Origin: an uncultured Thermococci archaeon
GTDB lineage: Archaea > CAYQAE01 > CAYVLA01
Direction: 5' to 3'
NCBI GenBank assembly: GCA_964549615.1
Contig: CAZJVP010000094.1
Span: forward strand, 1 to 52,119
DNA: 52,119 nt
Below the pieces are notes generated by a model that was not told where the DNA came from, did no database searches, and saw only the letters and a program-made list of their open reading frames with translations. A program made the translations under genes and the position numbers. Positions within the stretch are counted from its first letter, which is position 1; every line of letters starts with the position of its first letter. Positions 7,193 through 29,298 of the stretch are shown here, piece after piece.

Positions 7193-9637
7193 TCAGTTCC
7201 GTCCCTGAATGCGCAACGTCACTATCTCATGGGGCAGGGAGGGAAATTGGATGACCCGTCCCCTAGCCTTCGCCGGCATCACGGGCTCCTCAAGAAGGTT
7301 GCAGATCCACGAATGCCCGGGACGGAAAGGAAGCTGGAGTCGGACCTCGCACCGCCGACCGATGGTCTCGTAACCCCTGACGATCAAATCCTGACCGGCG
7401 CGTTTCAACACTACCACCTCGAACGTGTCCGGGTAACACCGGAGAAACGATTTGGATGCGGCCTCGATGTGCAAGCCGGAAAGGCATAGGGGCGGCGAGT
7501 TGTAGGAGTGGGCCATCTTCGCAACCCCGGATGTCCTCCAAGACCGGGCGTGCGGATAGAGAGCGTACTGGAACGTATGGTCGCCCTCCTCGCGTGCCAG
7601 CACGCACCGGCTGTCGTCGTTCTCGTACTCCAAACCGAGCCTCTTCCTCGCCTCGTAGTACCCGGCGAAGCGGGAGAAAGAGCGCATGAGCACCATGTCC
7701 AAGCTTCCCTTCCTGACCCAGTAGCCGGCCGTGCCGCGGTTGAGAAGTGCCACCCCCTTCTGCCCGTCGTGGCAATCAACGAAGGTCTGGGCACAGAAGT
7801 GCTGGTCAAGCTGCCTCTCCGTCACCGCGAAAGGGGTCTCGTAACACGCACGAGCTCTGTCCCAGTCTAGATTCAGAGGGAATCGTACCTCCAACATCAG
7901 ATCGGCACCCCTGTAACCTAGGATGGCCGTCTCCATGTCGACGCGCTCCATCCCCCTGTACAGGAATATCCTCTGGAGACGCTCGAAATCCAGGAACTTT
8001 CCCTTCACCTCGATCCACGAACCCAGTCGATCCTCAAACGCCGCCACCTTCGGGCGAGCGAAGTCTTCCGGCCTGTGAACGCGTCCCGTGAAGGAAAGCC
8101 GGCCCTCCATATCCGGGTCATCCTCCTCCAAGGCCACCAACTCATTTCCGGGCCCCGCCAGAACCTCATGGCCCATCTTCTTGTGCAGGATGCTACTGAT
8201 CGATCCCGTCCTGGGGTCCACGGAGACGCGCAGGAACTCGTTTTCCATCGAGCACGGCCCACTCCGGCCTCCTTGATGGCGACTGCTCGGCTCGCGCCCC
8301 CCGACCCGGTACCTACGGAAGCCAAGCCCAGGAAGGTTTCGCGCCAAGAAATCCACGAAGGTGCCATCGTTGCTCGTCCGGATCCTGGTCGGGACTGCTC
8401 GCCGACCGTCTAGCAGTCCGCTTTCCACCTCCTCATGCCCAACCTCCACCGTGCAGACCTCTGTACGCGGGAAGCTCAGGCAATTGAAGGCGGCGAGGTG
8501 CTTGCCCCCCTTTCTAGCCCGGGCCAGCCGTACCGCGCACTGAATCGCCAACTGCCTTGACCTCTCCTTCACGTCAAGGAGCCTCTTCATCGCCCCGCGA
8601 TACACCGCGTCGTAGTGGCTTCCTCCGATTATGTCGTGGAAATGACAGTAGATGAGATTCTTCCAAAGGCCGTCCATCTTCATCGAAGACCTGCCTCCGA
8701 GAGACCATGCCAACGTGGACAGCCTCTCGGCGCACAGGATCCAGTTCTCCGCCTCCCGGTTTCTCTTCTTCAGTTCCACCCGGTTGTCGTAGGTACCTCT
8801 CAGGTCGCCGTCCAGAGGCGGGTTGAAATCCGTCCGAACCACGCGCCGCACCGGCCCCCCGGCAAGACGCTCGGCCAAGAAACGGCTGGGCGTGGATGGG
8901 CCGATCCAATCAACCTGCAGGCCAAGCTCCCTTGCAGCTCTGCCGACGATCGACCTGATCTGGCCCGAATCGTGGACTGGGACGGAAATGTCGCTTCCCC
9001 ATGGAAGCATGACCACGTCCGATGTCCTGTGTGCGCAGACCGCTGCAAGAACCGGCTTCACATTGTCGATCCCCGCAGCGTAATGGCCAGACATCCAGTG
9101 GGTCAGTATGCGGGAGCCGTCCGGTGACTCGTACCAGAACTCGCTGGGCATCTTCGCCGCCTGCGAGGGATCAACTCCCCGGGAAAAGACGAAGCAACGG
9201 TATCCGGACTTCCGGAGGATCTGAGGCAACTGGGTGCACTGCCCGAAGGTGTCGATGTTCCATGCGCACTGGACGTCAACTCCCAGGTTCTTGGAGAACC
9301 AACGTTTGCCGTAGAGTATCTGTCTGACGAGGCATTCGCCGTTAGGCTCCGCCACCTCGGGCTGGACGTACATCCCGCCGACCATCTCGAACTTTCCCTC
9401 CGAGATGCGCCGCGCAAGGAGATCTTTCTGGTCCCTGCACAGAGCTTGCAGCGCCGGCTTCACAACGGTGACTTGGTCTTGGCAGAAACAGTAGTCTGGA
9501 TCCCTCGCCATTATGCCTAGGGCGGCCTTCATGGTCCTCACTGCAAAGGCGTGCATTGTTCGCCGCGACCAATACCATTCGGTGTCTATGTGGGAATGTG
9601 GGACGACGTGGATCCGCAGGCGGGCTTTACTGGCCAT
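7193..9637 (-). CDS. Glycoside hydrolase family 38 (alpha-mannosidase-like)
   Basis: HSHIDTEW zinc motif, NIDTFG nucleophile and HFHDIIGGS. The ATG at 9637 overlaps the upstream stop (TGATG). Confidence 0.92.
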   Translation of the reverse strand: MASKARLRIHVVPHSHIDTEWYWSRRTMHAFAVRTMKAALGIMARDPDYCFCQDQVTVVKPALQALCRDQKDLLARRISEGKFEMVGGMYVQPEVAEPNGECLVRQILYGKRWFSKNLGVDVQCAWNIDTFGQCTQLPQILRKSGYRCFVFSRGVDPSQAAKMPSEFWYESPDGSRILTHWMSGHYAAGIDNVKPVLAAVCAHRTSDVVMLPWGSDISVPVHDSGQIRSIVGRAARELGLQVDWIGPSTPSRFLAERLAGGPVRRVVRTDFNPPLDGDLRGTYDNRVELKKRNREAENWILCAERLSTLAWSLGGRSSMKMDGLWKNLIYCHFHDIIGGSHYDAVYRGAMKRLLDVKERSRQLAIQCAVRLARARKGGKHLAAFNCLSFPRTEVCTVEVGHEEVESGLLDGRRAVPTRIRTSNDGTFVDFLARNLPGLGFRRYRVGGREPSSRHQGGRSGPCSMENEFLRVSVDPRTGSISSILHKKMGHEVLAGPGNELVALEEDDPDMEGRLSFTGRVHRPEDFARPKVAAFEDRLGSWIEVKGKFLDFERLQRIFLYRGMERVDMETAILGYRGADLMLEVRFPLNLDWDRARACYETPFAVTERQLDQHFCAQTFVDCHDGQKGVALLNRGTAGYWVRKGSLDMVLMRSFSRFAGYYEARKRLGLEYENDDSRCVLAREEGDHTFQYALYPHARSWRTSGVAKMAHSYNSPPLCLSGLHIEAASKSFLRCYPDTFEVVVLKRAGQDLIVRGYETIGRRCEVRLQLPFRPGHSWICNLLEEPVMPAKARGRVIQFPSLPHEIVTLRIQGRN

Positions 9638-12600
9638 CAAAGTCCACGCCCCTCGGAACGAACGCGAGCAGCGATCCCCGAAGGCTCGGTCATCATGAAA
9701 CGTCCGGGTTGGACTTCCCTCGTCTTGCCTGCGATCGTGACTTTGGCCCGGACATTGGCAAAGCCGCTCCACCTCTTTCCCGACCTTTCCAGCGCGATGC
9801 GACCGCCCACACGGACCTTGTCGCCCGGCCCGAACTCCCAAACGTAGGCTTCCGGGAAAGCGAAATCTCCAAGGTCTTCGGCCAGCGTGATGAGTCCCTC
9901 CTCGACTTTCTCGATCATAACCCACCGCTTCATCTCCCTGTCCACGAGCCGAGCTCCTTCGTAGTATCCGTGGGCGGCCAGCATTAGCTTCGTCTCGGTC
10001 CTCACCTGCCGGTCCCCGGCCCTTTCCCCCATCAGGCGCCCAATCCGGCCATTGGCTTCGAGCTCCATGAGCAGGCCTTCCGGAATCGCTTGCGCACTCG
10101 CGATCCTAAAACACGATGAGCGCTTTTCGTTGCTCATGAAAGCGATCTCGCCCTCTATTGCCTTGGGATTCAGTCTCGGCGCGTCGGTCTCGACATACAC
10201 GGAAGACCTGTCACCGTCCACCCTCAGCACCTTGCCGTCCAGCGCGTCACCCATCTCTATCTCAAGATCTCCACGCGCCAGCGCGACTCCGTCCATGAAC
10301 AATTTCGTTGGGCCACAATCGTCCTCGCTCAAAAGAAGGAACCGACCACGGAAGACCATCCCCATTGCTTCCAAGCGGGCATTCGGATCAAGGGAACTCA
10401 AGATGACGTGTTTCGTGGCACCCTCGCGCACCACCACTCCCACCGGGAAGGCCGACTCCACATCGCATCTCACGTCCACACGACGCGCAGACCGGATCCT
10501 CCCGCTTCCGGCATGAACCTCCCCGACGGCCGCGAACGCACTGGAAAGGCTTTGGCCGCGATTGCGCAGGACGACGTAGGTCAGGCAAGGCGGGTTGCCC
10601 GGGCGGAGAGGCGGGTTGCCCTTTGCCACAAACGCTTCCTCGCTCGGTAGGGGAAACAGTAGCTTCAGGACTGCGCTCTGGGAGCGCCACTCGGCCGCCC
10701 AGGGTCGGTTCGGTTTGCCGCTCATGACACCATAGAGGTAGGAATACCCGCTTCCCCGGTAGGAGTAGTAAGATCGTGCCTTGTCAGGCCTCTCAAGTTC
10801 CGGGTCATCGTAGAGAAATCCGTACGGGACGTCCTCCCCGGCCAGCGTCCCCGGTCTTGGAGACACCTTGATCCCGGTCGTCCTGAAACGGCCCTCAAAC
10901 CCGTGCACCGAGTAGTCGTGCACGCTTCCGCCGCCTACCCGGAAGATGTCCAGAAAAAAAGGATGCTCCCGGCCTATCAAGGCTATCGTTCTTCTGTACA
11001 GCGGTGCTTCCTCGTAGGTCCTCGGGGCCGACGCTTCAGCCAGTTGTACGAGGGGGCTGGAATGGAAGATCTCAAGCCGGCCCGCGCATCCCGTGTCCTG
11101 CCTCCTCTCGTCAACCACCACCGTGTTGTGGGAGATAGTGTTTCTTTCCCAAGCCGGCGGGGACTTCGACTCAGCCGCGAACTGTGGATACCCAAGGTCA
11201 GGCATCACCTTCTGGCCGAGGCCGAAAAGCTCGATGCCCAGCCTGTCGAAGTGGCCGTGACCGTCCATGTTGCCGAAAAACATCGAGCACTCGAGCCCCT
11301 TGGCCCTGAGGATGACGAGCCCGTATCCGCCCAAGCAGTCGCTGCCCTTCCTCCTCGCAGGCTTGGATGCCTGGTTGATCTCATCCCTGGAGATCGCGGG
11401 GAGGAACAGATCCTCATACGTGCTGAACCCTGATCTCGTCAACCTCGCGAACGATGGGGATCGGAACATCCGGTAGGCCTTGGCCGCGTCGCTGGGGGAT
11501 AACCTAACCCTCCCGGAGGTCACGGACCCCGAGTCGCCGATCGCCGGCGTGTACCTGCCCAAGCACAATATGCGCTCCGGCACCTCGAGCATTCTGCGGA
11601 GCTTGTCCTTGTCCGGGAAGTCTACGCCGAGTGACTCCAGATGCGTTGCGATGGAAAGTAGGTTGGATGACCAGCCGAAGCAGTAGCCCGGCGCGTTTTC
11701 GAATGACATCCCCTCCCGGTATATGTAGTTGTCCATTGCGTATCTGAGACCCTGGTGCCAGTAGCCCCCCTTCGGGTTGTTCAGCAAACGATCCAGCCAT
11801 CTGTCTGTAACTGCCTTCCGGCCTAGCGCCTTTACGATGACCAGGGCCGCGTGCTGGTGCATCCCGTAGTTGCCGACTATCTTGCCGCCCTCTATGCCAG
11901 CCAGGCCTTCAAGCAACAGCCTGTCCTCCAAGAACCTCGCTAGTTCATCACCCTGCATGCCCACGGCCCGCGCTGTCGAGTCCGTGATATAGGGCCTCAG
12001 ATTTGCGACCGACTCGGCCAGCTGCCTGATCACATTGGTCTCCCAGATGTAGTTCACGATCTTGCCCTGATATGAGCGGTCGAACTCGGTAGCGTACCTG
12101 GATTGCTTGTTGTGATCCATCTCGGGGTAGTACTGCGCTATCCTGTGAAGCATGATCAGGCATTTCCTTCCGTACACCTGCTTCCCAGTAAGCAGATAGG
12201 CCCTCGACAGATTCAGAACGGCAGGTATGAGGTACGAATACCAAAGCCAGTGGCAGTAGTAGGCCACGAACCAATGCTTCTTGGCAGCTCCTTCCTTCCT
12301 CCAGCCCCACCCGTCGTCCGGGTAGTCCCCGGTCAGGAGCGATCTATCCTGCAGCCCCGAATCCAAGAACTTCTGGAAATCGTTGGATGGATACTCTTCC
12401 CCCCCAACGGGACACCTCAGTTTCCAAGGCCGCCTGAACGGATCCATTATCCACGAATAGTTACCGAATCTGAACAGGTCGGCGCCGTGCACAGGACAGC
12501 CCTCAAAGCTTGTGTTGAATGCTCTGGGAACGCTGGGCGGAGGGACCATTCGTGCCAACTCGGCGTCCGAGATTTCGACCCAGCGCGACACGCTGTTCAA

Positions 12601-12684
12601 CACACGGGCACGGATCCGCCTCGCGTCAGGATGGTGTGCAACGTTAGCCCTAGCAACCTCGATCGAGCCGTAGACGCAACTCAT
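9637..12684 (-). CDS. Heparinase II/III-like protein (polysaccharide lyase-like)
   Basis: GNYGMHQ, ENAPGY, PAIGDS, HGHFDRLGIEL, PDLGYP and TISHNTVVVD motifs, plus N-terminal CPVH...CPVG. Start estimated at ATG 12684. Confidence 0.82.
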   Translation of the reverse strand: MSCVYGSIEVARANVAHHPDARRIRARVLNSVSRWVEISDAELARMVPPPSVPRAFNTSFEGCPVHGADLFRFGNYSWIMDPFRRPWKLRCPVGGEEYPSNDFQKFLDSGLQDRSLLTGDYPDDGWGWRKEGAAKKHWFVAYYCHWLWYSYLIPAVLNLSRAYLLTGKQVYGRKCLIMLHRIAQYYPEMDHNKQSRYATEFDRSYQGKIVNYIWETNVIRQLAESVANLRPYITDSTARAVGMQGDELARFLEDRLLLEGLAGIEGGKIVGNYGMHQHAALVIVKALGRKAVTDRWLDRLLNNPKGGYWHQGLRYAMDNYIYREGMSFENAPGYCFGWSSNLLSIATHLESLGVDFPDKDKLRRMLEVPERILCLGRYTPAIGDSGSVTSGRVRLSPSDAAKAYRMFRSPSFARLTRSGFSTYEDLFLPAISRDEINQASKPARRKGSDCLGGYGLVILRAKGLECSMFFGNMDGHGHFDRLGIELFGLGQKVMPDLGYPQFAAESKSPPAWERNTISHNTVVVDERRQDTGCAGRLEIFHSSPLVQLAEASAPRTYEEAPLYRRTIALIGREHPFFLDIFRVGGGSVHDYSVHGFEGRFRTTGIKVSPRPGTLAGEDVPYGFLYDDPELERPDKARSYYSYRGSGYSYLYGVMSGKPNRPWAAEWRSQSAVLKLLFPLPSEEAFVAKGNPPLRPGNPPCLTYVVLRNRGQSLSSAFAAVGEVHAGSGRIRSARRVDVRCDVESAFPVGVVVREGATKHVILSSLDPNARLEAMGMVFRGRFLLLSEDDCGPTKLFMDGVALARGDLEIEMGDALDGKVLRVDGDRSSVYVETDAPRLNPKAIEGEIAFMSNEKRSSCFRIASAQAIPEGLLMELEANGRIGRLMGERAGDRQVRTETKLMLAAHGYYEGARLVDREMKRWVMIEKVEEGLITLAEDLGDFAFPEAYVWEFGPGDKVRVGGRIALERSGKRWSGFANVRAKVTIAGKTREVQPGRFMMTEPSGIAARVRSEGRGL

Positions 12685-12938
12685 TCCAGGATGGCCCGGA
12701 TGGCGCGTTGAAATAGATGTTTCTGATGCTTCGATCGACAACGCCCTAGAACCGGCCAGCTTCCGCCAGCATGCCAACGCCGAAGCCCCTTTGGGCGATC
12801 TCAGGGCTCAAACGAACATGCGAAGCCGCCGAATCATCCGATGGAAACTGCCCGCCAACCGTTGTTCAACCTTGGTACTGCCCCTGCGCGATTGGCCGGG
12901 CTACTTTTCCCTGTCCATCCGAGGAAGGATCCCTTCCC

Positions 12939-13507: not shown

Positions 13508-14056
13508 ATGGCCTACATACCGTGGAGACGAGTTGCCTCCTGGAACTGCACCAGCTGCGGCGTATGCTGCATGCGGTTTGCCGTGTTCCTCACCAAGGCC
13601 GAACGCGACAGCATGGTCGCCCACTTCGGCAAAAGGACGGTGGTGGAGCACGAGAGCGGCCCGAGGCTCCGAAAAATCGGCAGGAGGTGCTTCTTCCAAC
13701 GCTGGACGAACGGGACCTCCTACTGTCTGCTGCAGAACACCGGCCTGAAGCCCTCGGCATGCCGGATCTTCCCGTTCCTTGCTTTCCCCAAGCCCCTGCG
13801 CGACCGGCATGCCAAGGAGTCCTTCTTTGAATTCAACGACCATGAACTCTACATCTACGCTAACTCGCGCTGTCCGTCGCTTGTGTTGGGAACGCCCACC
13901 GCCTACCTGGTTGAGAAGGTCCTTCCCGAGATAGCCGAGATCGCGACTGTTGGTCGGCGGAGCCAGCGATACAGCACCTCGAACAGCGAGGCCCCGCCCA
14001 CGGAGCTCCTGGGCATTCCGTCAAGTAGGGACCGGCTCATCCCCTGGGGCATCTAG
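13508..14056 (+). CDS. YkgJ / CxxCxxCC family zinc- or iron-chelating protein
   Basis: CTSCGVCC, RCFF, YCLL, KPSACRIFPF and SRCP motifs. Confidence 0.85.
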   Translation: MAYIPWRRVASWNCTSCGVCCMRFAVFLTKAERDSMVAHFGKRTVVEHESGPRLRKIGRRCFFQRWTNGTSYCLLQNTGLKPSACRIFPFLAFPKPLRDRHAKESFFEFNDHELYIYANSRCPSLVLGTPTAYLVEKVLPEIAEIATVGRRSQRYSTSNSEAPPTELLGIPSSRDRLIPWGI

Positions 14057-14087: not shown

Positions 14088-15593
14088 CTACTCCCCGAAG
14101 ACTTCGGCCGTGAACGAATACAGCTCCGATGTTTTCCAAGCGTCGCGCTCCAAGCCGGCCTTGCTGCAGATCTCGGCAAGGTACCTCTGCCTGTCCCACC
14201 CGTTCTCTACGGGCACCTGGGGCAGCAACAGTCCCGAGGCCCCGTGGCCGACTATGTAGAGTCCGTCCCTTCCGACCACTATCTGCTCGGGATCCAGCAC
14301 GATCCTTAGCCGAGACAGCACGGAGATTTCTATCTTCACGTCAGCCAGCTCACTGGCCGACAGTGGCGGAAACCTGGGGTCCTCGCAGGCCGCTTTGACG
14401 GCAACGTCCCTGACGACCAACCACAGGGGATACTCCGGAAGCGTGTATCCGATGCAGCCACGCAGTGCCCCGGCCCTCTTCAGCGTCACGAACGCTCCGC
14501 TCCGCCCGAGCAGGACCGGATCGGTCGTTTGGTAGCTCAGCATCTCACCGGTCTGAAGATAGTGCGATATCGCTGACCTTGCCAATCTGAGCAGTTCCTG
14601 GCGGGACGCAGCGGCAAGGACGGACGACGCGTTGCCCCTCACTAGCGCGGCGGACAGGTAACCCACCACCGACGAGACATCGCCGGAGTAGCTGCCCGAA
14701 TCGCCGTACCTGAGGATCACCGAGGCGTTGTACCCCAGTCTCTCGCACGCAAGCATGACCGTCTCTACGGCCGCCAGCCCGCAAAGCTCGCAGGCCCCGC
14801 TTCGCGCCTTCAACTGCAGGCCCACGGGGTCGAACGCGTCGATCGATGATACCACAGCCTGGTCCAGCACGATTGCATTGGCCCTAGGGTGGTAGTGGGA
14901 AAGATCGGAGCTTGCAACCAGGAGAACCTTCTTGCCCTCGCAGCATTTGGCTATCGCTTCTGCTACCCGCGCCCACAATGCCGGGTCATTATCGTTGATC
15001 GCCATGGCCACGATCTTGAACTTGCCCAGAGTCTCCTGCAGGAAGGGGAGCTGAACCTCAAGCGAATGCTCTAGGTCGTGAGCCTTCGGTTGATAGTCTA
15101 TGTCGGGACTCGTACGGATGAGCGACGTAGAGATCTCCTCGTCTATCTCGACTTCTCCCAAAGGGGTGCTGTACCAGCCGCAAGGGTACACCGACGCCTT
15201 GCTCACGGCATAGTAGTGGCTGGGGCCCACCAAGATGACCGTGTCGTAGGCCCGCCCTTCCAGTTGCCTGTACGCCCAAGCCGCCACAGCGCCCGAATAG
15301 ACGTAGCCGGCGTGAGGGACTATGAGTCCACCTATCTCCTTGCCCGAGCACTTCGCCTCGGCCCCTGCGAGGAGATCCTCCACCATCTGCCTGAGTTCCA
15401 CTGGGTCACCGGGATAGAAACCTCCGGCAACTGCGGCATCCCTGAGCTTGGGCTCGTATGTGACCTCGCTGCCGCCCTCGCCTGTGCTCTGCCCATGGGA
15501 TCTGGGCCTCACCGTCAGATACCCAAGCGCCACCAAGACGACCGCAGCCGTTCCAACAGCCACCACGAGGAGGGGCTTTCGTAAGCCGTTCAT
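14088..15593 (-). CDS. AmmeMemoRadiSam protein B (Memo-like) and protein A (AMMECR1-like) fusion with N-terminal signal anchor
   Basis: AVAGGFYP, PHAGYVYSG, GPSH, EHSLEVQLPFL and SSDLSHY (Memo), then GAFVTL, LRGCIG and GLLLPQV (AMMECR1). The ATG at 15593 overlaps the amrS stop (ATGA). Confidence 0.92.
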   Translation of the reverse strand: MNGLRKPLLVVAVGTAAVVLVALGYLTVRPRSHGQSTGEGGSEVTYEPKLRDAAVAGGFYPGDPVELRQMVEDLLAGAEAKCSGKEIGGLIVPHAGYVYSGAVAAWAYRQLEGRAYDTVILVGPSHYYAVSKASVYPCGWYSTPLGEVEIDEEISTSLIRTSPDIDYQPKAHDLEHSLEVQLPFLQETLGKFKIVAMAINDNDPALWARVAEAIAKCCEGKKVLLVASSDLSHYHPRANAIVLDQAVVSSIDAFDPVGLQLKARSGACELCGLAAVETVMLACERLGYNASVILRYGDSGSYSGDVSSVVGYLSAALVRGNASSVLAAASRQELLRLARSAISHYLQTGEMLSYQTTDPVLLGRSGAFVTLKRAGALRGCIGYTLPEYPLWLVVRDVAVKAACEDPRFPPLSASELADVKIEISVLSRLRIVLDPEQIVVGRDGLYIVGHGASGLLLPQVPVENGWDRQRYLAEICSKAGLERDAWKTSELYSFTAEVFGE

Positions 15594-16768
15594 GACCACA
15601 CCCCTGGGATCTTGGCCCCGCAGAACCCACATCTATCGCCATCCATCTTGTTCATCAGGACGGCGAAGCCCACCCTCTGGATCAGCATCTGCCCGCAGGA
15701 GTGGCAGTAGGTATTGCTCGCTTGGTGCCCGGCCACGTTCCCGATGTAGACATACTTAATTCCCTTCTCCAAGGCTATCTCCCTAGCCCTCTCAAGGATC
15801 TGGACGGGGGTGTAAGGTAAGTGAACGAGTTTGTACTTAGGGGAGAATCTTGAGAAATGTAGGGGGCAATCCGTCCCAAGGTTTTCGACGATCCAGTCGC
15901 ACATATCCGAGATCATCTCCTCCCTGTCGTTCAGCGTCGGGACTACCAGGTTGGTTATCTCGATCCACACCCCCCTCTCCTTCATCGTAACCAGGTAATC
16001 TAGCACAGGCTGAAGCTGGCCTGAACACACCTTCTGGTAGAAGTCCTCGCTGTATCCCTTCAGATCCACGTTCGCTGCATCCATGACCCTGCAGAGCTCG
16101 ATCAGCGGTTCGACGTTCAGAAATCCGTTGGTGATGTCCAGATTCCTGATCCCCGAGTCGCGCGCGAGCTTACACGTGTCGTACATATACTCGTAGAAGA
16201 TCGAGGGCTCGTTGTAGGTGTAGGCTATGCACGATGACCCGCTCTTCGCAGCCATATCGACCACTTTCTCCGGCGGCATGTCGAAGCTCTCCAAGTCCTC
16301 GGGCCTTGCCTGGGAGATCTCCCAGTTCTGGCAGTAGAGACACTCGAAATTGCACCCGGCCGTCGCGATCGAGAAGGCGGATGCGCCGGGCAGGAAGTGG
16401 TAGAGCGGTTTCTTCTCTATGGGGTCGACGTGCCAAGTGCAGGGCCGGGCGTACACAAGTGTCGTCAACCTGCCATCCCTGTTCTCCCTCACTTGACAAA
16501 TCCCCCGCGTCCCTGGCGCAATGGTGCATCGATTGGGGCAGAGAAGGCATCTTACTCCACCCGTCTTGAGGGGCTCATAGTACCGAGCCTCCGTTCCCCC
16601 GATGGGCCGTCCGGACCCTCCTCCGCCCCCGGTTCCCTTCCTAGGGTTTGAGAATCCGTGGAGCGCGTACGCGCCCAAGGCTAGCCCCGCGCCCACAGCG
16701 ACAGCGGCCTTGATGAATCCCCTCCGGCTCGTGGGGCCTTTCCCCCTGCTGGACCCGGCATCCTCCAC
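15590..16768 (-). CDS. amrS: AmmeMemoRadiSam radical SAM enzyme with Tat-like N-terminus
   Basis: CLLCPNRC, DPIEKKPLYHF, GCNFECLYCQN (CxxxCxxC), AYTYNEP and YVYIGNV. N-terminal SRRGFIK followed by an h-region. Confidence 0.93.
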   Translation of the reverse strand: MEDAGSSRGKGPTSRRGFIKAAVAVGAGLALGAYALHGFSNPRKGTGGGGGSGRPIGGTEARYYEPLKTGGVRCLLCPNRCTIAPGTRGICQVRENRDGRLTTLVYARPCTWHVDPIEKKPLYHFLPGASAFSIATAGCNFECLYCQNWEISQARPEDLESFDMPPEKVVDMAAKSGSSCIAYTYNEPSIFYEYMYDTCKLARDSGIRNLDITNGFLNVEPLIELCRVMDAANVDLKGYSEDFYQKVCSGQLQPVLDYLVTMKERGVWIEITNLVVPTLNDREEMISDMCDWIVENLGTDCPLHFSRFSPKYKLVHLPYTPVQILERAREIALEKGIKYVYIGNVAGHQASNTYCHSCGQMLIQRVGFAVLMNKMDGDRCGFCGAKIPGVWS

Positions 16769-16793: not shown

Positions 16794-16806
16794 CTTAAAG
16801 CTTTTC
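16794..16806 (-). promoter_or_regulatory. BRE + TATA (GAAAAG-CTTTAAG) for the amrS operon
   Basis: Located 25 nt upstream of the GTG at 16768, which is leaderless geometry. Confidence 0.6.
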
Positions 16807-17025: not shown

Positions 17026-18471
17026 TTACGGCATCAGGGGCGCCAGCACGATGAGCAATATCTCGGAGATGCCCGTAATCGCTAGGCCGCTCACAAGTCC
17101 TATCTTCAGCCATCTGGAGAAGGGCATCGTGTAGCGCCTCTCCCTCTCCAGCATCCCAAGGGCCACGATATTGGCCGTGCTGCCCACCATAGTTATGTTC
17201 CCGCCGAAGCACCCGCCGAAAAGCAACGCCCACCAAAGGGGAAATGGGTCCGCCCCGAGTTGAGCAATGCTCTGCACGACGGGTATCATGGCCGATACGA
17301 GCACCACATTGTCCAGTATGCTTGAGCCAAAACACGAAACCCAGGTGATCATCGTTACCAGGCCGAGGTAACTCGCCCCGGCGAAGCTGGAGAGGTCCTT
17401 AGCAAGGACATCGGTCGCGCCGGTAAACTTCAGCGTCCCGGCCATGGCGAATAGCATTAGAAAGAAAAGCAGCGTCCACCAATCGACGCTCCTCTCGATG
17501 TACTGGCGGGCCCTGTTGCGTTTCCATAACATGGTTGCCCCCGCGCCCAGGATGGGGGCCGCCAGCAAGAGGGAGTTCTTGGAGAATCCCAGAAGCAGCT
17601 CCAGGCGATAGTGAAGAGCAATCAGGCACACCGTAAACACGAATATGCCCACACCGATCCTATACTCGCCCCCCTTGAAAGCTCCATCCACGAACCTGCC
17701 ATCCCCTTCCTTCTTCGATTCGGCCGCCATCCTCCGTTGCAGGAGCCGTAAATCCCTTCGGTACCACGCGAGCACGATCATCATCGTCATCAAGAGAGAG
17801 ACGAGCATGATGGGAAACGACCATCTGATGAAGTCCTCGAAGCTCAGCCCGGCACGCATCCCGATCAATATCCCGATGGGGTTCCCAAGCATCGTTCCTG
17901 CCGAGCCAACGTTGGTAGCCAGCACGCTTGAGATAACCAGGGGCACGGGATCGACGGCGTAGTGATCGGAGATCTCAAGGACTATGGAGACTATGAAGAT
18001 TATGGATGTCACCTCGTCGACCAGACACGCCAGGAGCGCGGAGGTTAAGCAGATCAGAAGCACAAATCTCCTAGCGCTGTTCTTCGAGAGAGCGAACAGC
18101 CTCAGGATCAGCCAGTTGAAGAAGCCTATCTCCTTGAGCATCCCCAAAATGACCATCATGGCGACGAGGAAACACACCACGTCCAGGGACGAGAAAGCGA
18201 TGAACTCCTCCACATCGATCGTTCGGGTCACGAGGAGTATCCCGGTCCCAAGGAAGGCTATGCCCAATCTGAACTGCCAGAAGAAGAGGGTGCCCAGCAG
18301 GGTCGACGAGAAGATTGAGATGGAGAGAACCTGTGCTTGGTTGAACCCGGTCTCCGAGCACACAACCGCGATGACGATCACGATTGAGACGAGAGCCAAT
18401 GATTTCTCCAGGATGCGTGAGGCTTGGGGCACGCGAAGTTCGCTCAGGTCCTCAGATCGGCGATCGCTCAC
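17026..18471 (-). CDS. ArsB/NhaD / SLC13 (IT superfamily) ion transporter
   Basis: About 12 TM segments with DEVTS, TNVGSAGTMLGNP, DNVVLV and GGNITMVGSTANIVA motifs. Confidence 0.9.
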   Translation of the reverse strand: MSDRRSEDLSELRVPQASRILEKSLALVSIVIVIAVVCSETGFNQAQVLSISIFSSTLLGTLFFWQFRLGIAFLGTGILLVTRTIDVEEFIAFSSLDVVCFLVAMMVILGMLKEIGFFNWLILRLFALSKNSARRFVLLICLTSALLACLVDEVTSIIFIVSIVLEISDHYAVDPVPLVISSVLATNVGSAGTMLGNPIGILIGMRAGLSFEDFIRWSFPIMLVSLLMTMMIVLAWYRRDLRLLQRRMAAESKKEGDGRFVDGAFKGGEYRIGVGIFVFTVCLIALHYRLELLLGFSKNSLLLAAPILGAGATMLWKRNRARQYIERSVDWWTLLFFLMLFAMAGTLKFTGATDVLAKDLSSFAGASYLGLVTMITWVSCFGSSILDNVVLVSAMIPVVQSIAQLGADPFPLWWALLFGGCFGGNITMVGSTANIVALGMLERERRYTMPFSRWLKIGLVSGLAITGISEILLIVLAPLMP

Positions 18472-18473
18472 GC

Positions 18474-18929
18474 CTATTCCTTCCCGGTCATGGTGAGGAT
18501 GCTCCTCAAAATGTCCTCTCGGGCGACGATTCCCACCAACCGATTATCCCTTAGGACGGGTATCCTCCTCACGTTCTGGACCAGCATAATCTTGGCCACC
18601 TCCACGATCGGCGTGTGTTCCTCTACGCAGACGACCTCCTTGCGCATGATCTCGCCGACCTTGATTGTCTCTAGCTGACTCATCCTCCTCTCGAGGCCCT
18701 TGTGGCCGAATACCTTAGTAAGCGCCTCAAACTGCTCTACATACGAAGGAAGGATCGTCCTTAGAACATCTTTCTCGGTGAACATCCCAATGACGTGATT
18801 CTCCTCGTCGACAACCGGCAGGCCGCTCATCTTCAGCTTGAAGAGCAGGCTCACCGCGTCCTTGACGGTGGTCTGCGGACTCAGGGTCACAACGTCCTTA
18901 GTCATTATCCTGCCTATCTCCAAACCCAA
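18474..18929 (-). CDS. CBS-pair domain protein
   Basis: IMTKDVVT..SGLPVVD..IGMFTEKD and IMRKEVV..RRIPV..VGIVAREDI. AAGGAG SD before the TTG. Confidence 0.92.
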   Translation of the reverse strand: MGLEIGRIMTKDVVTLSPQTTVKDAVSLLFKLKMSGLPVVDEENHVIGMFTEKDVLRTILPSYVEQFEALTKVFGHKGLERRMSQLETIKVGEIMRKEVVCVEEHTPIVEVAKIMLVQNVRRIPVLRDNRLVGIVAREDILRSILTMTGKE

Positions 18930-19340: not shown

Positions 19341-21023
19341 CTACTTCCTTGGGGCGACGCGAAAGCTATCCAGGACATTCCCGTCGATGCTGACTGCCCT
19401 GACGGCCATGGACCTGCCCTCGACGTCCACTGCAACGTGGTGGAATGCGCTGGAATACCTCTCGTAACAGTCGACGTCGTAGACTTTGGAGTCCAGCCCG
19501 CCCCCACCGCCGCCGGTGATCACGACATGGATGTCGCCTATCCTGCCCCTTTCATAGTCGTGGCAGTGGCCATTGAACATGATCTCCAAGCCGTGCTGCT
19601 GAAACATCGGGATCAGCACGGTCCGAACCTCGGGGTTCCCGTCGAAGCTCTGCAGCCCCCATCCCACGCAGAAGCCGGGCTCGTGGAAGAATGCGATCCG
19701 GAAATCAGCCTGCTGGAACTCCGGCCTCTTCAGCTCGCTTAGCAACCAGGCGTGTTGGTCGCTGCCTTCGCAGATGTTGTCGTAGTTGTTCAGGACGAGG
19801 AACCGGCAGTTGGAGTATGTGAACGCGTAATGATCGGTGAAGCCTGGGTGCGAGAAGTAGCGAAAGAACCAGGAGAGATTGGCTTCGTTTCCCCCTCCCG
19901 CCTCGTGGTTTCCAACCACGTGGTACGATGGCACATTGCAGAAAAGTGAGGCCAGAGAATCGAAGTAGTCTCGCCAATGGGGATACAGCCTGCCGTCGGA
20001 TGCCGCATCCCCGACATTGACGACGAAATCCGGGTGATCGCTCGCCATGTTCTCTGCGATCCTCCGCGCCGTTTGCGACGAGTGCGTGTCGCCGAAAACG
20101 CAGAACCGAAAGGGCCGTGCTCGGGCCGGGGCCGTCCTGAACGCGTGGAGCGGCGTGCAGATACTGCCCGACCTCACCCTGTAGAAGTACCTCGCATCGG
20201 GCTCAAGGTCCTGGAGAGACACCTTGTGAATGGCACTGCGCCGGCCGTCTGAGGCAAGGAGGCCTAGTTGATCGGTGGTGCCGTACTCGATGACACCCTG
20301 GGTCTGCTGGCTGGTTTCCCACGCGACGACGATCGAATTCGGAGTGGGATTCTGTAGGTAAGGCAGCTTCTGGAAGAACCTCTCTTCCATCTCGGTGATT
20401 GCCTTGACGGAGAAGCCCTTGCATGCAAAGATCCCCTTCCCTTTGCAGTACAGGCCGGTTGCCCCCGGGGAAAGCCCGGGCACAACGAGGTCCCAGAGAA
20501 GCACATTGTCATGCCACACCCGAACCCTCTCACCGACCGCCTCCAGCTTTATGTCCTCGGTGATCCTGAAGTAGATGTGGGTGGGGATGTAGTCGGATTC
20601 GTACCGGTCGCGGCGAAGCTCCGTCTCGTTTCCCTGTTCAACCCTCACGAGGCGCCTGAAGCGGTCCTCTGGGTTCCTATAGTTCTTACGCTCCTCGTAC
20701 CTGACGTAGTCTCCTTCTCCAGTGTACCCGAAGACTACCCCTACCGAGCTGTCCCCAACATCACCGAGCTGGCGGATCTGTGCCTCCAAGCAGAAGCTCT
20801 GCAGAGGATGAGCTAGCACAACGCTGGGGAGAAGGATGCTACACCCTCTTTCGTTGCCCGGCGCCCGTCCGTCCTGCACGAGGAGGCCAACCTTAGCGTT
20901 ATACCAGTTTGACACGTAGCCCAGGTCCCTCTTCACCCATCCCAAAAGGGGCTTGCCTTTCTCAAAACCGTCGTGAAAAGAGAATGTGCCTGCGTCGCAG
21001 TTCTCCATCGTCTCGCCGACCAT
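19341..21023 (-). CDS. Metallophosphoesterase (purple acid phosphatase-like) with N-terminal ConA/DUF1080-like and FN3 domains
   Basis: PYLQNPT..SIVVAWET FN3 domain, then GDTH, VGD, GNHE, FHEP and GHCHDYER motifs. The ORF-track start overlaps the sulfatase, so the real start is probably ATG 21023 or 21008. Confidence 0.85.
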   Translation of the reverse strand: MVGETMENCDAGTFSFHDGFEKGKPLLGWVKRDLGYVSNWYNAKVGLLVQDGRAPGNERGCSILLPSVVLAHPLQSFCLEAQIRQLGDVGDSSVGVVFGYTGEGDYVRYEERKNYRNPEDRFRRLVRVEQGNETELRRDRYESDYIPTHIYFRITEDIKLEAVGERVRVWHDNVLLWDLVVPGLSPGATGLYCKGKGIFACKGFSVKAITEMEERFFQKLPYLQNPTPNSIVVAWETSQQTQGVIEYGTTDQLGLLASDGRRSAIHKVSLQDLEPDARYFYRVRSGSICTPLHAFRTAPARARPFRFCVFGDTHSSQTARRIAENMASDHPDFVVNVGDAASDGRLYPHWRDYFDSLASLFCNVPSYHVVGNHEAGGGNEANLSWFFRYFSHPGFTDHYAFTYSNCRFLVLNNYDNICEGSDQHAWLLSELKRPEFQQADFRIAFFHEPGFCVGWGLQSFDGNPEVRTVLIPMFQQHGLEIMFNGHCHDYERGRIGDIHVVITGGGGGGLDSKVYDVDCYERYSSAFHHVAVDVEGRSMAVRAVSIDGNVLDSFRVAPRK

Positions 21024-21126
21024 GCATCGACCAACCCATACGCGACCGAAAAATGGCTCCACACAAGCAGGCACACAGATTTCAGGCATCGGCCTGATCG
21101 CGCAAGAGCAAACTGAGGAAATCGGC

Positions 21127-22605
21127 ATGCGCATTCTGTACATAGATCTGGACTGTTGCCGGGCCGACCATCTGGGCTGCAATGGATACCCAAGGAACAC
21201 GAGCCCAAACATAGACGCGATCGCAAGTGAAGGCGTCACCTTCTCAAACTGCCACTGCGCCAACTCCCCCTGCGTTCCCTCGCGGGCCAGCCTTTTCCTA
21301 GGCCGCTTCGGAATCAACACGGGCATCGTGGCGCACCATGGGATAGGAGAACAGCTCCGCTGGACCGACATGTACCGAAGCCACCACTCGGACATGGAGC
21401 GCCCCACCCTGCCCATGCAGGTCTGGATGAGCGGCATGAGGACGGTGACCTTCAGTTGTTTCCACCACCGCCACAACGCATGGTGGTTTACGGCCGGCTG
21501 GGAGGAGATCCACACATTCACAAGAAAGCGAGGACGGGAGACGGCCGACGAGGTGAATGCTGCGTTCCTTCCCTGGCTTCGCGCAAATGGCAAGGCCGAC
21601 AACTGGTTCGCACATGTCCATTACTGGGATCTTCACAGCAGCTATCGCACACCTCCCGAGTGGATCGAAAGGTTCAAAGACTCGCCCGGGCCGCGCTGGC
21701 CCGATCAGGCGACAATCGATCGACATCAGTCAATGTACGGCCCGAGGACGGCGGTGGACCTCTACACCGGGTATGAAAGCCGCAAGGGGGATGGACCGGC
21801 GCGCCCCGTGGACTACATGCCCGACGCCATAAGAAGCGAGGACGACCTGAAGATGCTGGTCGATGGTTATGACGGGTCCCTCGCGTATGCGGATCACCAC
21901 ATTGGCCAGTTGGTTCAAAGCCTCGATGACCTCGGAGTCTTGGACGAAACGGCCATCATCGTCAGCGGGGATCACGGCGATTCATTCGGCGAACACGGAC
22001 AGTACATGGACCACGGCATCGCCAACGAGGCCGTCCACAACATCCCGATGGTCGTCAGATGGCCGGGAGTTACCAGAAAGGGCCGCTGCGATTCGCTGAT
22101 CTACGGCATGGACCTTGCGCCCACCCTGTGCGACATGCTCGGGTTTCGCATCCCGTCGAAGTGGGATGGCCGGTCCTTCGCTCCCGCGCTCAGGGGAGAG
22201 GACTTCCGCGGGTGGCCATACCAGGTTTGGGATCACGGCATCTACACCTTCACGCGGGCCGTCAGGACGCCCAGCTGGCTCATGATTACGGTGCTGCACC
22301 CCGGCCTTTACCCCTACGACGATCCGGTCATGTTACACGACCTCAAGTCCGACCCACACCAGGAGATCAACCTAGCCCGAGATGAACCCGTGGTCGTGGA
22401 CGATCTTTTCCGCTTGCTTGAGGGGTGGCGGGAAGAACAACTAGCGAAGGGCGGGGGGCCGGACCCACTCCTCCAGATGGTTCAGGAGGGACCCTTCATC
22501 TACTACACCCCCGAGCAGATGTTCGCCCGGCTTGAGCGCACGGGGCGATCGCACATCATACCCGAACTCAAGGCACGGCTCAACAAGTACCACCCCGGCC
22601 GTTAG
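21127..22605 (+). CDS. Cys-type sulfatase (formylglycine-dependent)
   Basis: ILYIDLDCCRADHL, CVPSRASL (CxPxR), HYWDLH, SGDHG and LHDL..DP.QE.NLA motifs. The ATG at 21127 follows GAGGA. Confidence 0.93.
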   Translation: MRILYIDLDCCRADHLGCNGYPRNTSPNIDAIASEGVTFSNCHCANSPCVPSRASLFLGRFGINTGIVAHHGIGEQLRWTDMYRSHHSDMERPTLPMQVWMSGMRTVTFSCFHHRHNAWWFTAGWEEIHTFTRKRGRETADEVNAAFLPWLRANGKADNWFAHVHYWDLHSSYRTPPEWIERFKDSPGPRWPDQATIDRHQSMYGPRTAVDLYTGYESRKGDGPARPVDYMPDAIRSEDDLKMLVDGYDGSLAYADHHIGQLVQSLDDLGVLDETAIIVSGDHGDSFGEHGQYMDHGIANEAVHNIPMVVRWPGVTRKGRCDSLIYGMDLAPTLCDMLGFRIPSKWDGRSFAPALRGEDFRGWPYQVWDHGIYTFTRAVRTPSWLMITVLHPGLYPYDDPVMLHDLKSDPHQEINLARDEPVVVDDLFRLLEGWREEQLAKGGGPDPLLQMVQEGPFIYYTPEQMFARLERTGRSHIIPELKARLNKYHPGR

Positions 22606-28047: not shown

Positions 28048-29298
28048 CTACCTAGCTCTGGTCGTCCCTGCCTCCCGGTACAGCATCCTCCTTATCATCA
28101 GGGCGTACAGGACGGATCCTGCAGCCATCGAGGTTCCCATGACGGCGCACCATTCGATGACGTAGATCCACAGGAGCGCCCTGTCCTTCGACTTGATGGC
28201 CTCATCAGCCAGCTTCGACAGGGCATTCAGGGCGCCTTCGATTGACTCCCGAGCCTCGTCAAGTTCAACCCGGCGGAAGTAGAGATCGCCGGCAGCTTTA
28301 TCCGCATCGATCTGGCTGAGCTTGTCATACAGGCTCTTCGAGCTTGCACCGAACTTCTCAGCGAAATCTATCACCGATATCACGAATAGCCTCTTCTCCC
28401 TGTAGTTGGCCAGCGAGATCCTTACGAGATGGTCTAGCTCCATGTCTTGAGGTATCGGCAGCCTCGCGGGAAAGTAGGCCATGTGGGCTAGGAAGTCGGC
28501 GCAGTACTCCCACCTGTAGAAGTCGGTCACCCCGTTGCCTCCCCAGTCGAACACCAAGGCCACGGACCTTCCCCTCCCAGGGTCCCAGGTTGCGATCATG
28601 GGGCTTCCCGGTGGATTCCTGTCCATGCGGGCGAGGACCTGGCCACCCTGCCTTTCGAACACCCTGTTGTGGGCGTAGAAGTACACCGTATTCCAGGGCT
28701 TGCCCTTGAAGAGAGGGTGCTCCGGATTCTCGGGGACCAGCCTGAAGACTTTGCCTAGGTCCCACCCCTTGCGGTCCTCGGAGCACTCAACAGGGAGGAT
28801 CTCCCCAACGGGGGTCGGCCCCCAGCTTGGGCAAGGACCCCAGCTCCCCTCCTTGCCGCCGAAGCTGGCTGGCCCGTCCACCATCATGAAACCCAGTCCG
28901 CCCTCCACAACGGAGTCCTTGATCCAGAACTTGAACTCATTCTTGAGATGATGGCTCTGCGCATCGGCAATTATGACCTCATCGTAGTCCGAAAGAAGGT
29001 TGGACCTGCTCCGAGGAAGGTACATCCTGTAGTACCTTAGAGCCAGCTCGACGCCCTTCTGATCCGTGCCCAGGATCCCGATCTCGCTTGGAACGGGCGT
29101 CACCTCGATCCTTGGGTCATCGCTGTAGTACGGGGTGGGAAATCCCGGGGCCATGAACGAATCCCCGAGGAAGAGGAGCCGGATGGCCCCGGTCTCCGGG
29201 TCGACCTTCGGCTGACCCAGCGCAGGAACGCAAACCACCAGGATGGATGAAAGGAATAGAGCTGCCGCCGCGCTATTCCGCATCATGCCCCTGGTCAT
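28048..29298 (-). CDS. Exported GATase1-like (DUF1355-like) protein with helical stalk and C-terminal TM anchor
   Basis: Signal peptide, GGLGFMMVDGPASFGG..WGPTPVGEILPV, WDPGRGRS, and tail ALLWIYVIEW...RRMLYRE. Confidence 0.8.
   Translation of the reverse strand: MTRGMMRNSAAAALFLSSILVVCVPALGQPKVDPETGAIRLLFLGDSFMAPGFPTPYYSDDPRIEVTPVPSEIGILGTDQKGVELALRYYRMYLPRSRSNLLSDYDEVIIADAQSHHLKNEFKFWIKDSVVEGGLGFMMVDGPASFGGKEGSWGPCPSWGPTPVGEILPVECSEDRKGWDLGKVFRLVPENPEHPLFKGKPWNTVYFYAHNRVFERQGGQVLARMDRNPPGSPMIATWDPGRGRSVALVFDWGGNGVTDFYRWEYCADFLAHMAYFPARLPIPQDMELDHLVRISLANYREKRLFVISVIDFAEKFGASSKSLYDKLSQIDADKAAGDLYFRRVELDEARESIEGALNALSKLADEAIKSKDRALLWIYVIEWCAVMGTSMAAGSVLYALMIRRMLYREAGTTRAR

Follow-up and report, generated by a model that had tools for sequence, protein, structure and literature searches.

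Radical S-adenosylmethionine (SAM) enzymes are regarded as strictly confined to the cytoplasm, since they depend on SAM and a strong reductant and have an oxygen-sensitive cluster. One of them, AmrS, belongs to the AmmeMemoRadiSam system together with the Memo (AmrB) and AMMECR1 (AmrA) proteins, whose human homologs are linked to disease and which have no agreed biochemical function. The system is said to have been connected by Burroughs et al., in 2019, with modification of nucleotide bases or isoprenoids. RNA base modification is another role proposed for the canonical system (PMC2034487). Here we describe an AmmeMemoRadiSam gene pair (14088..16768, minus strand) on a 52,119-nucleotide stretch of DNA from an uncultured Thermococci archaeon (contig CAZJVP010000094.1; hereafter the window), both products of which bear export signals.

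The three components resemble the canonical cytoplasmic ones: TIGR04335, TIGR04336, and TIGR04337 were all passed well, and the CX3CX2C motif, the extra four-cysteine groups, the Memo columns, and the RGC motif are intact. The window system differs in having a 60-residue extension of twin-arginine translocation (Tat) type on AmrS and a signal anchor on the fused AmrB-AmrA protein. Other signal-bearing AmmeMemoRadiSam loci share the Tat signal on AmrS, a general secretory (Sec), lipoprotein, or anchor signal on the fusion, and translational coupling. Unlike them, the window copy is archaeal, has a fusion anchor that looks non-cleavable, and coexists with a signal-less housekeeping set; moreover, its accessory genes do not adjoin the pair but lie on other contigs of its genome. 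A literature search found neither a radical SAM Tat substrate nor an account of an exported AmmeMemoRadiSam system, and the export-signal-bearing variant is apparently undescribed.

Two further comparisons are informative. The nearest solved structure to AmrS by sequence is that of the activase PFL-AE (3c8f/3cb8; E 4.3e-7 over AmrS residues 135-285), which has the same radical SAM core, whereas AmrS has two extra cysteine groups and an export signal. That AmrS is itself a glycyl-radical enzyme activase of the PFL-AE type was considered and rejected, the TIGR02493 score being 49.7 bits against a cut-off of 231.75. Tat-exported iron-sulfur proteins, such as NapG-type ferredoxins and Rieske-type signal-anchored proteins, are alike in having a cofactor-loaded iron-sulfur passenger behind a twin-arginine (RR) signal, whose hydrophobic region (h-region) may stay as an anchor. 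The window passenger differs from these in that it is a radical SAM enzyme and requires SAM as well.

The export signals of the window pair are real and conserved. They cluster on the AmrS tree, the two proteins have matching ones, and the genome encodes Tat components. The reading we favor, as the probable though by no means certain one, is that the pair forms an accessory extracytoplasmic AmmeMemoRadiSam system in which a Tat-exported AmrS and an outward-anchored Memo-AMMECR1 protein would act on an envelope or membrane molecule.

Export signals on AmrS and the Memo-AMMECR1 fusion

The amrS gene (15590..16768; this and the other features of the pair are all on the minus strand) encodes an AmmeMemoRadiSam radical SAM enzyme of 392 residues from a GTG start. 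TIGR04337 matched residues 61-391 with 392.7 bits (cut-off 220), and the Pfam Radical_SAM model PF04055 scored 65.3 bits. The CX3CX2C motif (C139/C143/C146) is invariant in 25 of 25 aligned sequences, as are two further groups of four cysteines, giving 11 invariant cysteines in three groups.

Ahead of this core, residues 1-60 form an extension made up of a basic n-region, an RR motif, an uncharged stretch, and a glycine-rich linker. The motif SRRGFIK (16709..16729, residues 14-20) agrees with the S/T-R-R-x-F-L-K consensus of Tat substrates and is conserved in relatives. The initial annotation had the protein begin with this motif; the motif is there, but 13 residues precede it. What had been described after the motif is all present: an h-region of 16 uncharged residues, AAVAVGAGLALGAYAL (16661..16708, residues 21-36), with AYA at 33-35, and a variable linker (16592..16660, residues 37-59) that includes GTGGGGGSG (16607-16633, residues 46-54). 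The linker varies in length and sequence among the five nearest relatives, and its flanks are conserved. The h-region may be cleaved off as a signal or retained as a signal anchor; cleavage is uncertain because the AYA position reads TYA, GFA, or AYG in near relatives.

The existing gene call for amrS (P0001) has 300 residues and starts at an internal GTG, V93. This call, and the fact that the start proposed here is a GTG, would suit the explanation that the extension is untranslated and the enzyme an ordinary cytoplasmic AmrS, but we consider this highly improbable. A V93 start would delete the invariant C74, C77, C81, and C91 and leave positions 1-32 of the family profile unmatched; because it removes four invariant cysteines, we judge the P0001 start to be wrong. 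The GTG at 16768 is the first start codon after an upstream TAA, and no ATG occurs before residue 162. Between the RR motif and the conserved core, an in-frame ATG, GTG, or TTG occurs only at V25 and L31, within the hydrophobic stretch, which together with the cysteines lost at V93 rules against a start downstream of the motif. Further, the extension is conserved as protein while its codons differ: 24 of 57 aligned residues, namely those of the RR motif and the h-region, are kept in the other Hadarchaeota copy (locus L014), 20 of those 24 with different codons. A translated signal with a spacer behind it would be expected to show this pattern, which points to purifying selection on the signal. 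Relatedly, automatic annotation as in P0001 trims away the Tat signal and the four cysteines, and so hides the feature. A possible archaeal promoter (16794..16806), comprising a purine-rich stretch and TTTAAG (16799-16794), is centered about 28 bases upstream of the GTG. By the archaeal BRE/TATA consensus and spacing it is a candidate element, and the TTTAAG box would fit a leaderless or near-leaderless mRNA.

The second gene (14088..15593) encodes the amrB-amrA fusion, a protein of 501 residues with the same start as the existing call P0121. Its ATG at 15593 shares an ATGA with the amrS stop (15592-15590), so that the components are encoded together and the translational coupling first proposed for this pair holds. 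The fusion scored 275 bits with the Memo model TIGR04336 (cut-off 26) and 167.9 bits with the AMMECR1 model TIGR04335 (cut-off 99). Its Memo domain (14649..15437; PF01875, 209.6-211.8 bits) retains the His, Asp, and Cys columns, and its AMMECR1 domain (14097..14591; PF01871, 171.2-174.6 bits) the RGC motif (R378, G379, C380), all invariant in 36 aligned sequences; the solved structure nearest to the AMMECR1 domain is 1vaj (E 2e-38). In line with the earlier description, the fusion opens with a basic N-terminus, MNGLRKP, followed directly by about 21 hydrophobic residues that form a single N-terminal transmembrane helix, or signal anchor (15510..15572, residues 8-28).

Conservation, pairing, and phylogeny of the signals

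Homologs were counted among the best 120 matches each for AmrS, the fusion, and a signal-less paralog. For AmrS, 72 had an RR motif and h-region, and these came from many phyla; 26 had a Sec- or transmembrane-like hydrophobic N-terminus, and 13 had an extension below the hydropathy threshold, several of which by eye were KR or RK variants or truncated calls. Two more were short and two lacked the core motif, one of these being the window's own truncated call. The remaining five (P0012, P0019, P0024, P0026, P0072) were proteins of about 650 residues with a Sec-like signal, Memo, and a radical SAM domain, in which one signal would carry both activities. Sources included Woesearchaeota, Altiarchaeota, Chloroflexota, Omnitrophota, WOR-3, and Ignavibacteriales, and the five nearest AmrS relatives all retained [ST]RR.F[LIV]K. 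As a control, the matches to the signal-less paralog were sorted by the classifier used for AmrS and comprised 75 short, 27 hydrophobic, 5 Tat, and 5 extension-only sequences and 8 without the core motif. Homologs of the fusion had a hydrophobic N-terminus in 86 cases, at least 20 of these with a lipobox-like cysteine. A further 21 were short, some looking like gene calls from an internal Met; 12 escaped the anchor regular expression, 10 of them having a signal by eye; and one had an extension without a hydrophobic stretch. The five nearest fusion relatives all had a hydrophobic N-terminus, and distant bacterial relatives had Sec or lipobox signals.

Pairing of signals was followed in a census of 123 loci (43 from genomes, 80 from metagenomes), one of which was dropped for lack of a strong AmrS match. 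AmrS had a signal in 82 loci (55 RR, 18 KR or RK, 9 hydrophobic only) and none in 34, and was cut by contig ends in six. A Memo gene was seen in 39 loci, in 36 of which both N-termini could be classified. Both proteins had a signal in 28 of these and neither in two; in one (L138) AmrS had a signal and the partner fell just under threshold, with a signal by eye; and in five only the partner had one. Among the 29 classifiable loci with a signal on AmrS, the partner thus carried a Sec or lipoprotein signal in 28, a co-occurrence that the initial annotation had proposed to check, and none of the 36 loci had a clear AmrS signal beside a clearly signal-less partner. For 52 signal-bearing AmrS genes, no Memo gene lay within the sequence available around them. 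The Fisher-type association between AmrS signal and partner signal is weak (p ~0.03 by hand, from related rows and with only two of 36 loci lacking both signals), so that the pairing argument rests on the 28 of 29 concordance (29 by eye) and on the tree.

The tree was built with FastTree from core columns only, from the first cysteine onward, and had 118 rows after removal of seven that were of unsuitable length or lacked the motif. At least seven changes of the signal label were needed on this tree, against a mean of 29.5 in shuffled data, and none of 500 shuffles was as low. All 81 signal rows fell within one 97-row group (support 92). Within it, the window AmrS pairs with the other Hadarchaeota copy, L014, its nearest genome locus (support 100; 70% identity), among mostly bacterial rows; the genome's signal-less AmrS paralogs lie outside the signal group, on long branches. 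Because the root was not inferred, we claim clustering and not a direction of transfer.

The genome that harbors the pair (3.2 Mb, 104 contigs, 99.5% complete) encodes TatC (191.3 bits) and two TatA/B proteins (60.5 and 49.2 bits), one of their genes about 400 bases upstream of tatC, so that the translocase for Tat substrates is present. An admittedly crude scan of open reading frame starts for a Tat motif and hydrophobic stretch gave 17 matches genome-wide, versus 0 when RR was replaced by KK and 4 when the motif was reversed. Three of the 17 are DUF362 proteins; others include a NapG-like polyferredoxin and a solute-binding protein with a lipobox. TatC was also found in nine of ten other genomes with an RR-bearing AmrS, the exception being a 1.9-Mb bin of unknown completeness. 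Three findings that would speak against export, namely a start downstream of the RR motif, a genome without Tat machinery, and homologs without RR conservation, had been named beforehand; each was looked for and none was encountered.

In the same genome, four AmrS genes exceed the family cut-off, and Memo and AMMECR1 are each encoded twice; the copies outside the window all lack a hydrophobic N-terminus. Because the genome also keeps these signal-less copies, the window pair is an accessory system beside a housekeeping set. The window AmrS is 45% identical to the signal-less copy on contig C1, and the alignment begins only at residue 61. The stand-alone Memo gene follows a gene resembling that for ribosomal protein S2, which is an archaeal arrangement. 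Stand-alone AmrS, Memo, and AMMECR1 genes occur in all five genomes of the phylum that were examined, and the fused signal-bearing pair in two of them (G000 and G003, the AmrS frame of G003 reading the same as that of L014). Both of these Hadarchaeota genomes have TatC, and the sole genome of the five that lacks TatC also lacks the pair. G+C content is 0.57-0.62 across 9-22 kb of the window, with no island signature. Separately, the signal-less AmrS genes at C1:1184-2155 and C20:281279-282244 are nearly identical and each lies at a contig end (C1 is 2159 bases long); they are probably one gene split or duplicated by assembly.

Neighboring genes and hints of an outside location

Eleven related AmrS sequences (P0060, P0096, P0104, P0107, P0120, L016, L052, L089, L100, L133, L156), five of which form one clade (support 99), share, at a conserved position between their signal and first cysteine group, a CxxCH that is followed by a conserved CH..H. 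Heme c is attached only outside the membrane, and this insertion may be a heme-c site, although the motif alone is no proof of heme. The window AmrS does not have it.

Gene neighborhoods of the 82 loci with signal-bearing AmrS were compared with those of 27 signal-less loci without Memo. A polytopic membrane protein with a SpeE fold was a neighbor in 35 of the former and one of the latter, DUF362 in 25 versus 0, and DsbD_2 in 6 versus 0. When 21 rows of the SpeE-fold protein were aligned, the SpeE domain lay opposite the loops rich in Lys and Arg, provided that a 48-residue hydrophobic block is two helices; by this rough positive-inside argument, the domain appears to face outward.

Comparable genes occur in the archaeon's own genome, all of them unlinked to the window. 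C58:3372-6140 (locus L070) encodes a polytopic membrane protein whose central domain has the spermidine-synthase fold; the protein is 29% identical over 760 residues to the one beside an exported AmrS in locus L035. Its glycine loop reads GGGAGG; true spermidine synthases have GGGDGG, with an Asp that excludes SAM, and the loop here is without this Asp. At C104:109907-112437 (L069:4408-6938) are genes for a Tat-signal DUF362 protein, a Tat-signal NapG-like polyferredoxin, and a NapH-like membrane iron-sulfur protein, a module through which low-potential electrons might reach the outer face.

Within the window, a gene for a 481-residue CitMHS/ArsB-superfamily permease and a CBS-pair gene (17026-18929, minus strand), which lie directly upstream of amrS, were considered as a SAM or ion transport partner and rejected, since the neighborhood is not kept: CitMHS or CBS homologs were found near AmrS in none of 43 genome loci, L014 included, and in none of the 122 loci of the census. 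The upstream genes in L014 are instead Peptidase_M55, Flavoprotein, and MarC. The best NCBIfam match of the permease was MamN-like and far below cut-off. A sulfatase maturation role, for which the sulfatase gene at 20986-22605 would be the candidate, was considered and set aside as AmrS is not of the anSME/SPASM type. The gene at 13508-14056, which encodes a CxxCxxCC protein without a signal, is convergent to the fusion. Genes at 7193-12777 and 19341-22605 appear devoted to glycan and phosphate scavenging and encode a GH38 alpha-mannosidase, a 1046-residue heparinase II/III-like protein, a purple-acid-phosphatase-like protein, and the sulfatase. About 600 bases are shared by the open reading frames of the last two, one start probably being mis-set. 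A GATase1_like (PF07090) protein is encoded at 28048-29298 on the minus strand.

Site of action of the AmrS and Memo-AMMECR1 pair

In the mechanism we propose, AmrS would bind its iron-sulfur and other metal centers in the cytoplasm, and TatA and TatC would move the folded enzyme across the membrane by way of the SRRGFIK signal. With its 11 invariant cysteines in three groups, the passenger suits the Tat route. AmrS would then either stay tethered by an uncleaved signal or be released after AYA, and the Memo-AMMECR1 fusion would be inserted such that its N-terminus faces the cytoplasm and both its catalytic domains the exterior. The pair would modify a molecule at the outer membrane face or in the envelope; from an outer-face location would follow a surface substrate rather than RNA or DNA, and an isoprenoid lipid, a lipid-linked glycan, or a surface protein seems likelier than RNA. 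SAM might be exported bound to the folded enzyme and reused, or be presented by an apparently outward-facing SpeE-fold membrane protein, and electrons might come from Tat-exported iron-sulfur proteins such as those of the DUF362/NapG/NapH-like module of this genome. The broader proposal is that radical SAM turnover takes place outside the cytoplasmic membrane in archaea and bacteria, with SAM supplied through SpeE-fold proteins, electrons through iron-sulfur, DUF362, DsbD-like, or heme proteins, and an envelope target such as an isoprenoid lipid. This we put forward tentatively, as a possibility that the balance of evidence does not quite favor.

Several observations weigh against an extracytoplasmic role. 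We know of no radical SAM enzyme that acts outside the cytoplasm, and a literature search combining radical SAM with twin-arginine, periplasmic, or signal peptide turned up no exported one; SAM and low-potential reductant are cytoplasmic, and no conserved transporter or electron module is present in the window. The signal calls come from a home-made classifier based on hydropathy and regular expressions rather than from SignalP or TatFind. The short Pfam TAT_signal model PF10518 matched residues 13-32 of AmrS with 20.4 bits (E 4.9e-4) and narrowly missed its gathering score of 22.7; the homolog P0120 bears a precomputed mark for this model. No Shine-Dalgarno sequence is well placed before the GTG start of amrS. 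Charges around the fusion's transmembrane helix are balanced (R5 and K6 before, R29 and R31 after), so that the topology assigned to the window fusion rests on its relatives. Lastly, in the five loci with a signal or lipobox on the partner only (L105, L113, L126, L140, L158), AmrS has no extension and proved on checking by hand to be genuinely short; because of these five in 36, strict co-export is not always valid. In L105 and L140, AmrS directly follows a DUF362-like gene, and in L140 the frame upstream opens with an RR motif. This layout hints at hitchhiker export, yet it also speaks against a simple rule.

Two alternatives accept the signals but place the chemistry inside the cell. The pair might be tethered at the cytoplasmic face, or the extension might be a vestigial Tat-like signal used for chaperone binding, as in NarG; SAM and ferredoxin would then be at hand and a membrane lipid could be reached from inside. 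The cytoplasmic cofactors that radical SAM chemistry requires and the lack of an export precedent in the literature fit this explanation, as do the balanced charges of the fusion, the subthreshold TAT_signal score, and the five loci in which AmrS has no signal and its partner does. Yet the full S/T-RR-x-F-L/I-K and h-region are kept across phyla under purifying selection, basic residues precede the helix and, by the positive-inside rule, put the passenger outside, and bacterial partners have cleavable Sec signals and lipobox cysteines. The linker CxxCH of one clade and the enriched SpeE-fold neighbor, apparently outward-facing, also argue for an outside location, and we regard action at the inner face as unlikely.

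The other alternative is that AmrS acts before or during export, modifying its partner, itself, or a Tat cargo once in the cytoplasm and then leaving in complex, with no chemistry outside. Tat exports folded complexes, the DUF362-like genes before two of the five signal-less AmrS genes (and the RR motif of the L140 upstream frame) fit hitchhiking, and the nearest solved relative, PFL-AE (3c8f, E 4e-7), is a protein-acting activase. However, the window partner, with a Sec-type anchor of its own, would be translocated unfolded and apart from AmrS, the PFL-AE model gave only 49.7 of the 231.75 bits of its cut-off, and outward-facing neighbors with SAM-fold and iron-sulfur domains are hard to account for without turnover outside. 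We consider this alternative less likely still, although more credible than a misplaced amrS start. The location at the outer membrane face, or as a membrane tether, that the initial annotation suggested is the best supported reading, given the conserved signals, the matched partners, and the Tat genes.

If an extracytoplasmic role is true, the large conserved signal-bearing clade overturns the cytoplasm-only view of radical SAM enzymes and implies that SAM and low-potential electrons are available at the outer membrane face. Because the same archaeal genome also keeps a signal-less set, it usefully allows both systems to be compared in one background; a signal-bearing pair for bench work is available in a cultured bacterium, Dethiosulfatarculus sandiegensis SPR (locus L017). 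The finding also narrows the search for the role of Memo and AMMECR1: if the pair is outside, this branch does not modify cytoplasmic RNA, and if turnover takes place there, these long-unexplained families would gain a role in membrane chemistry.

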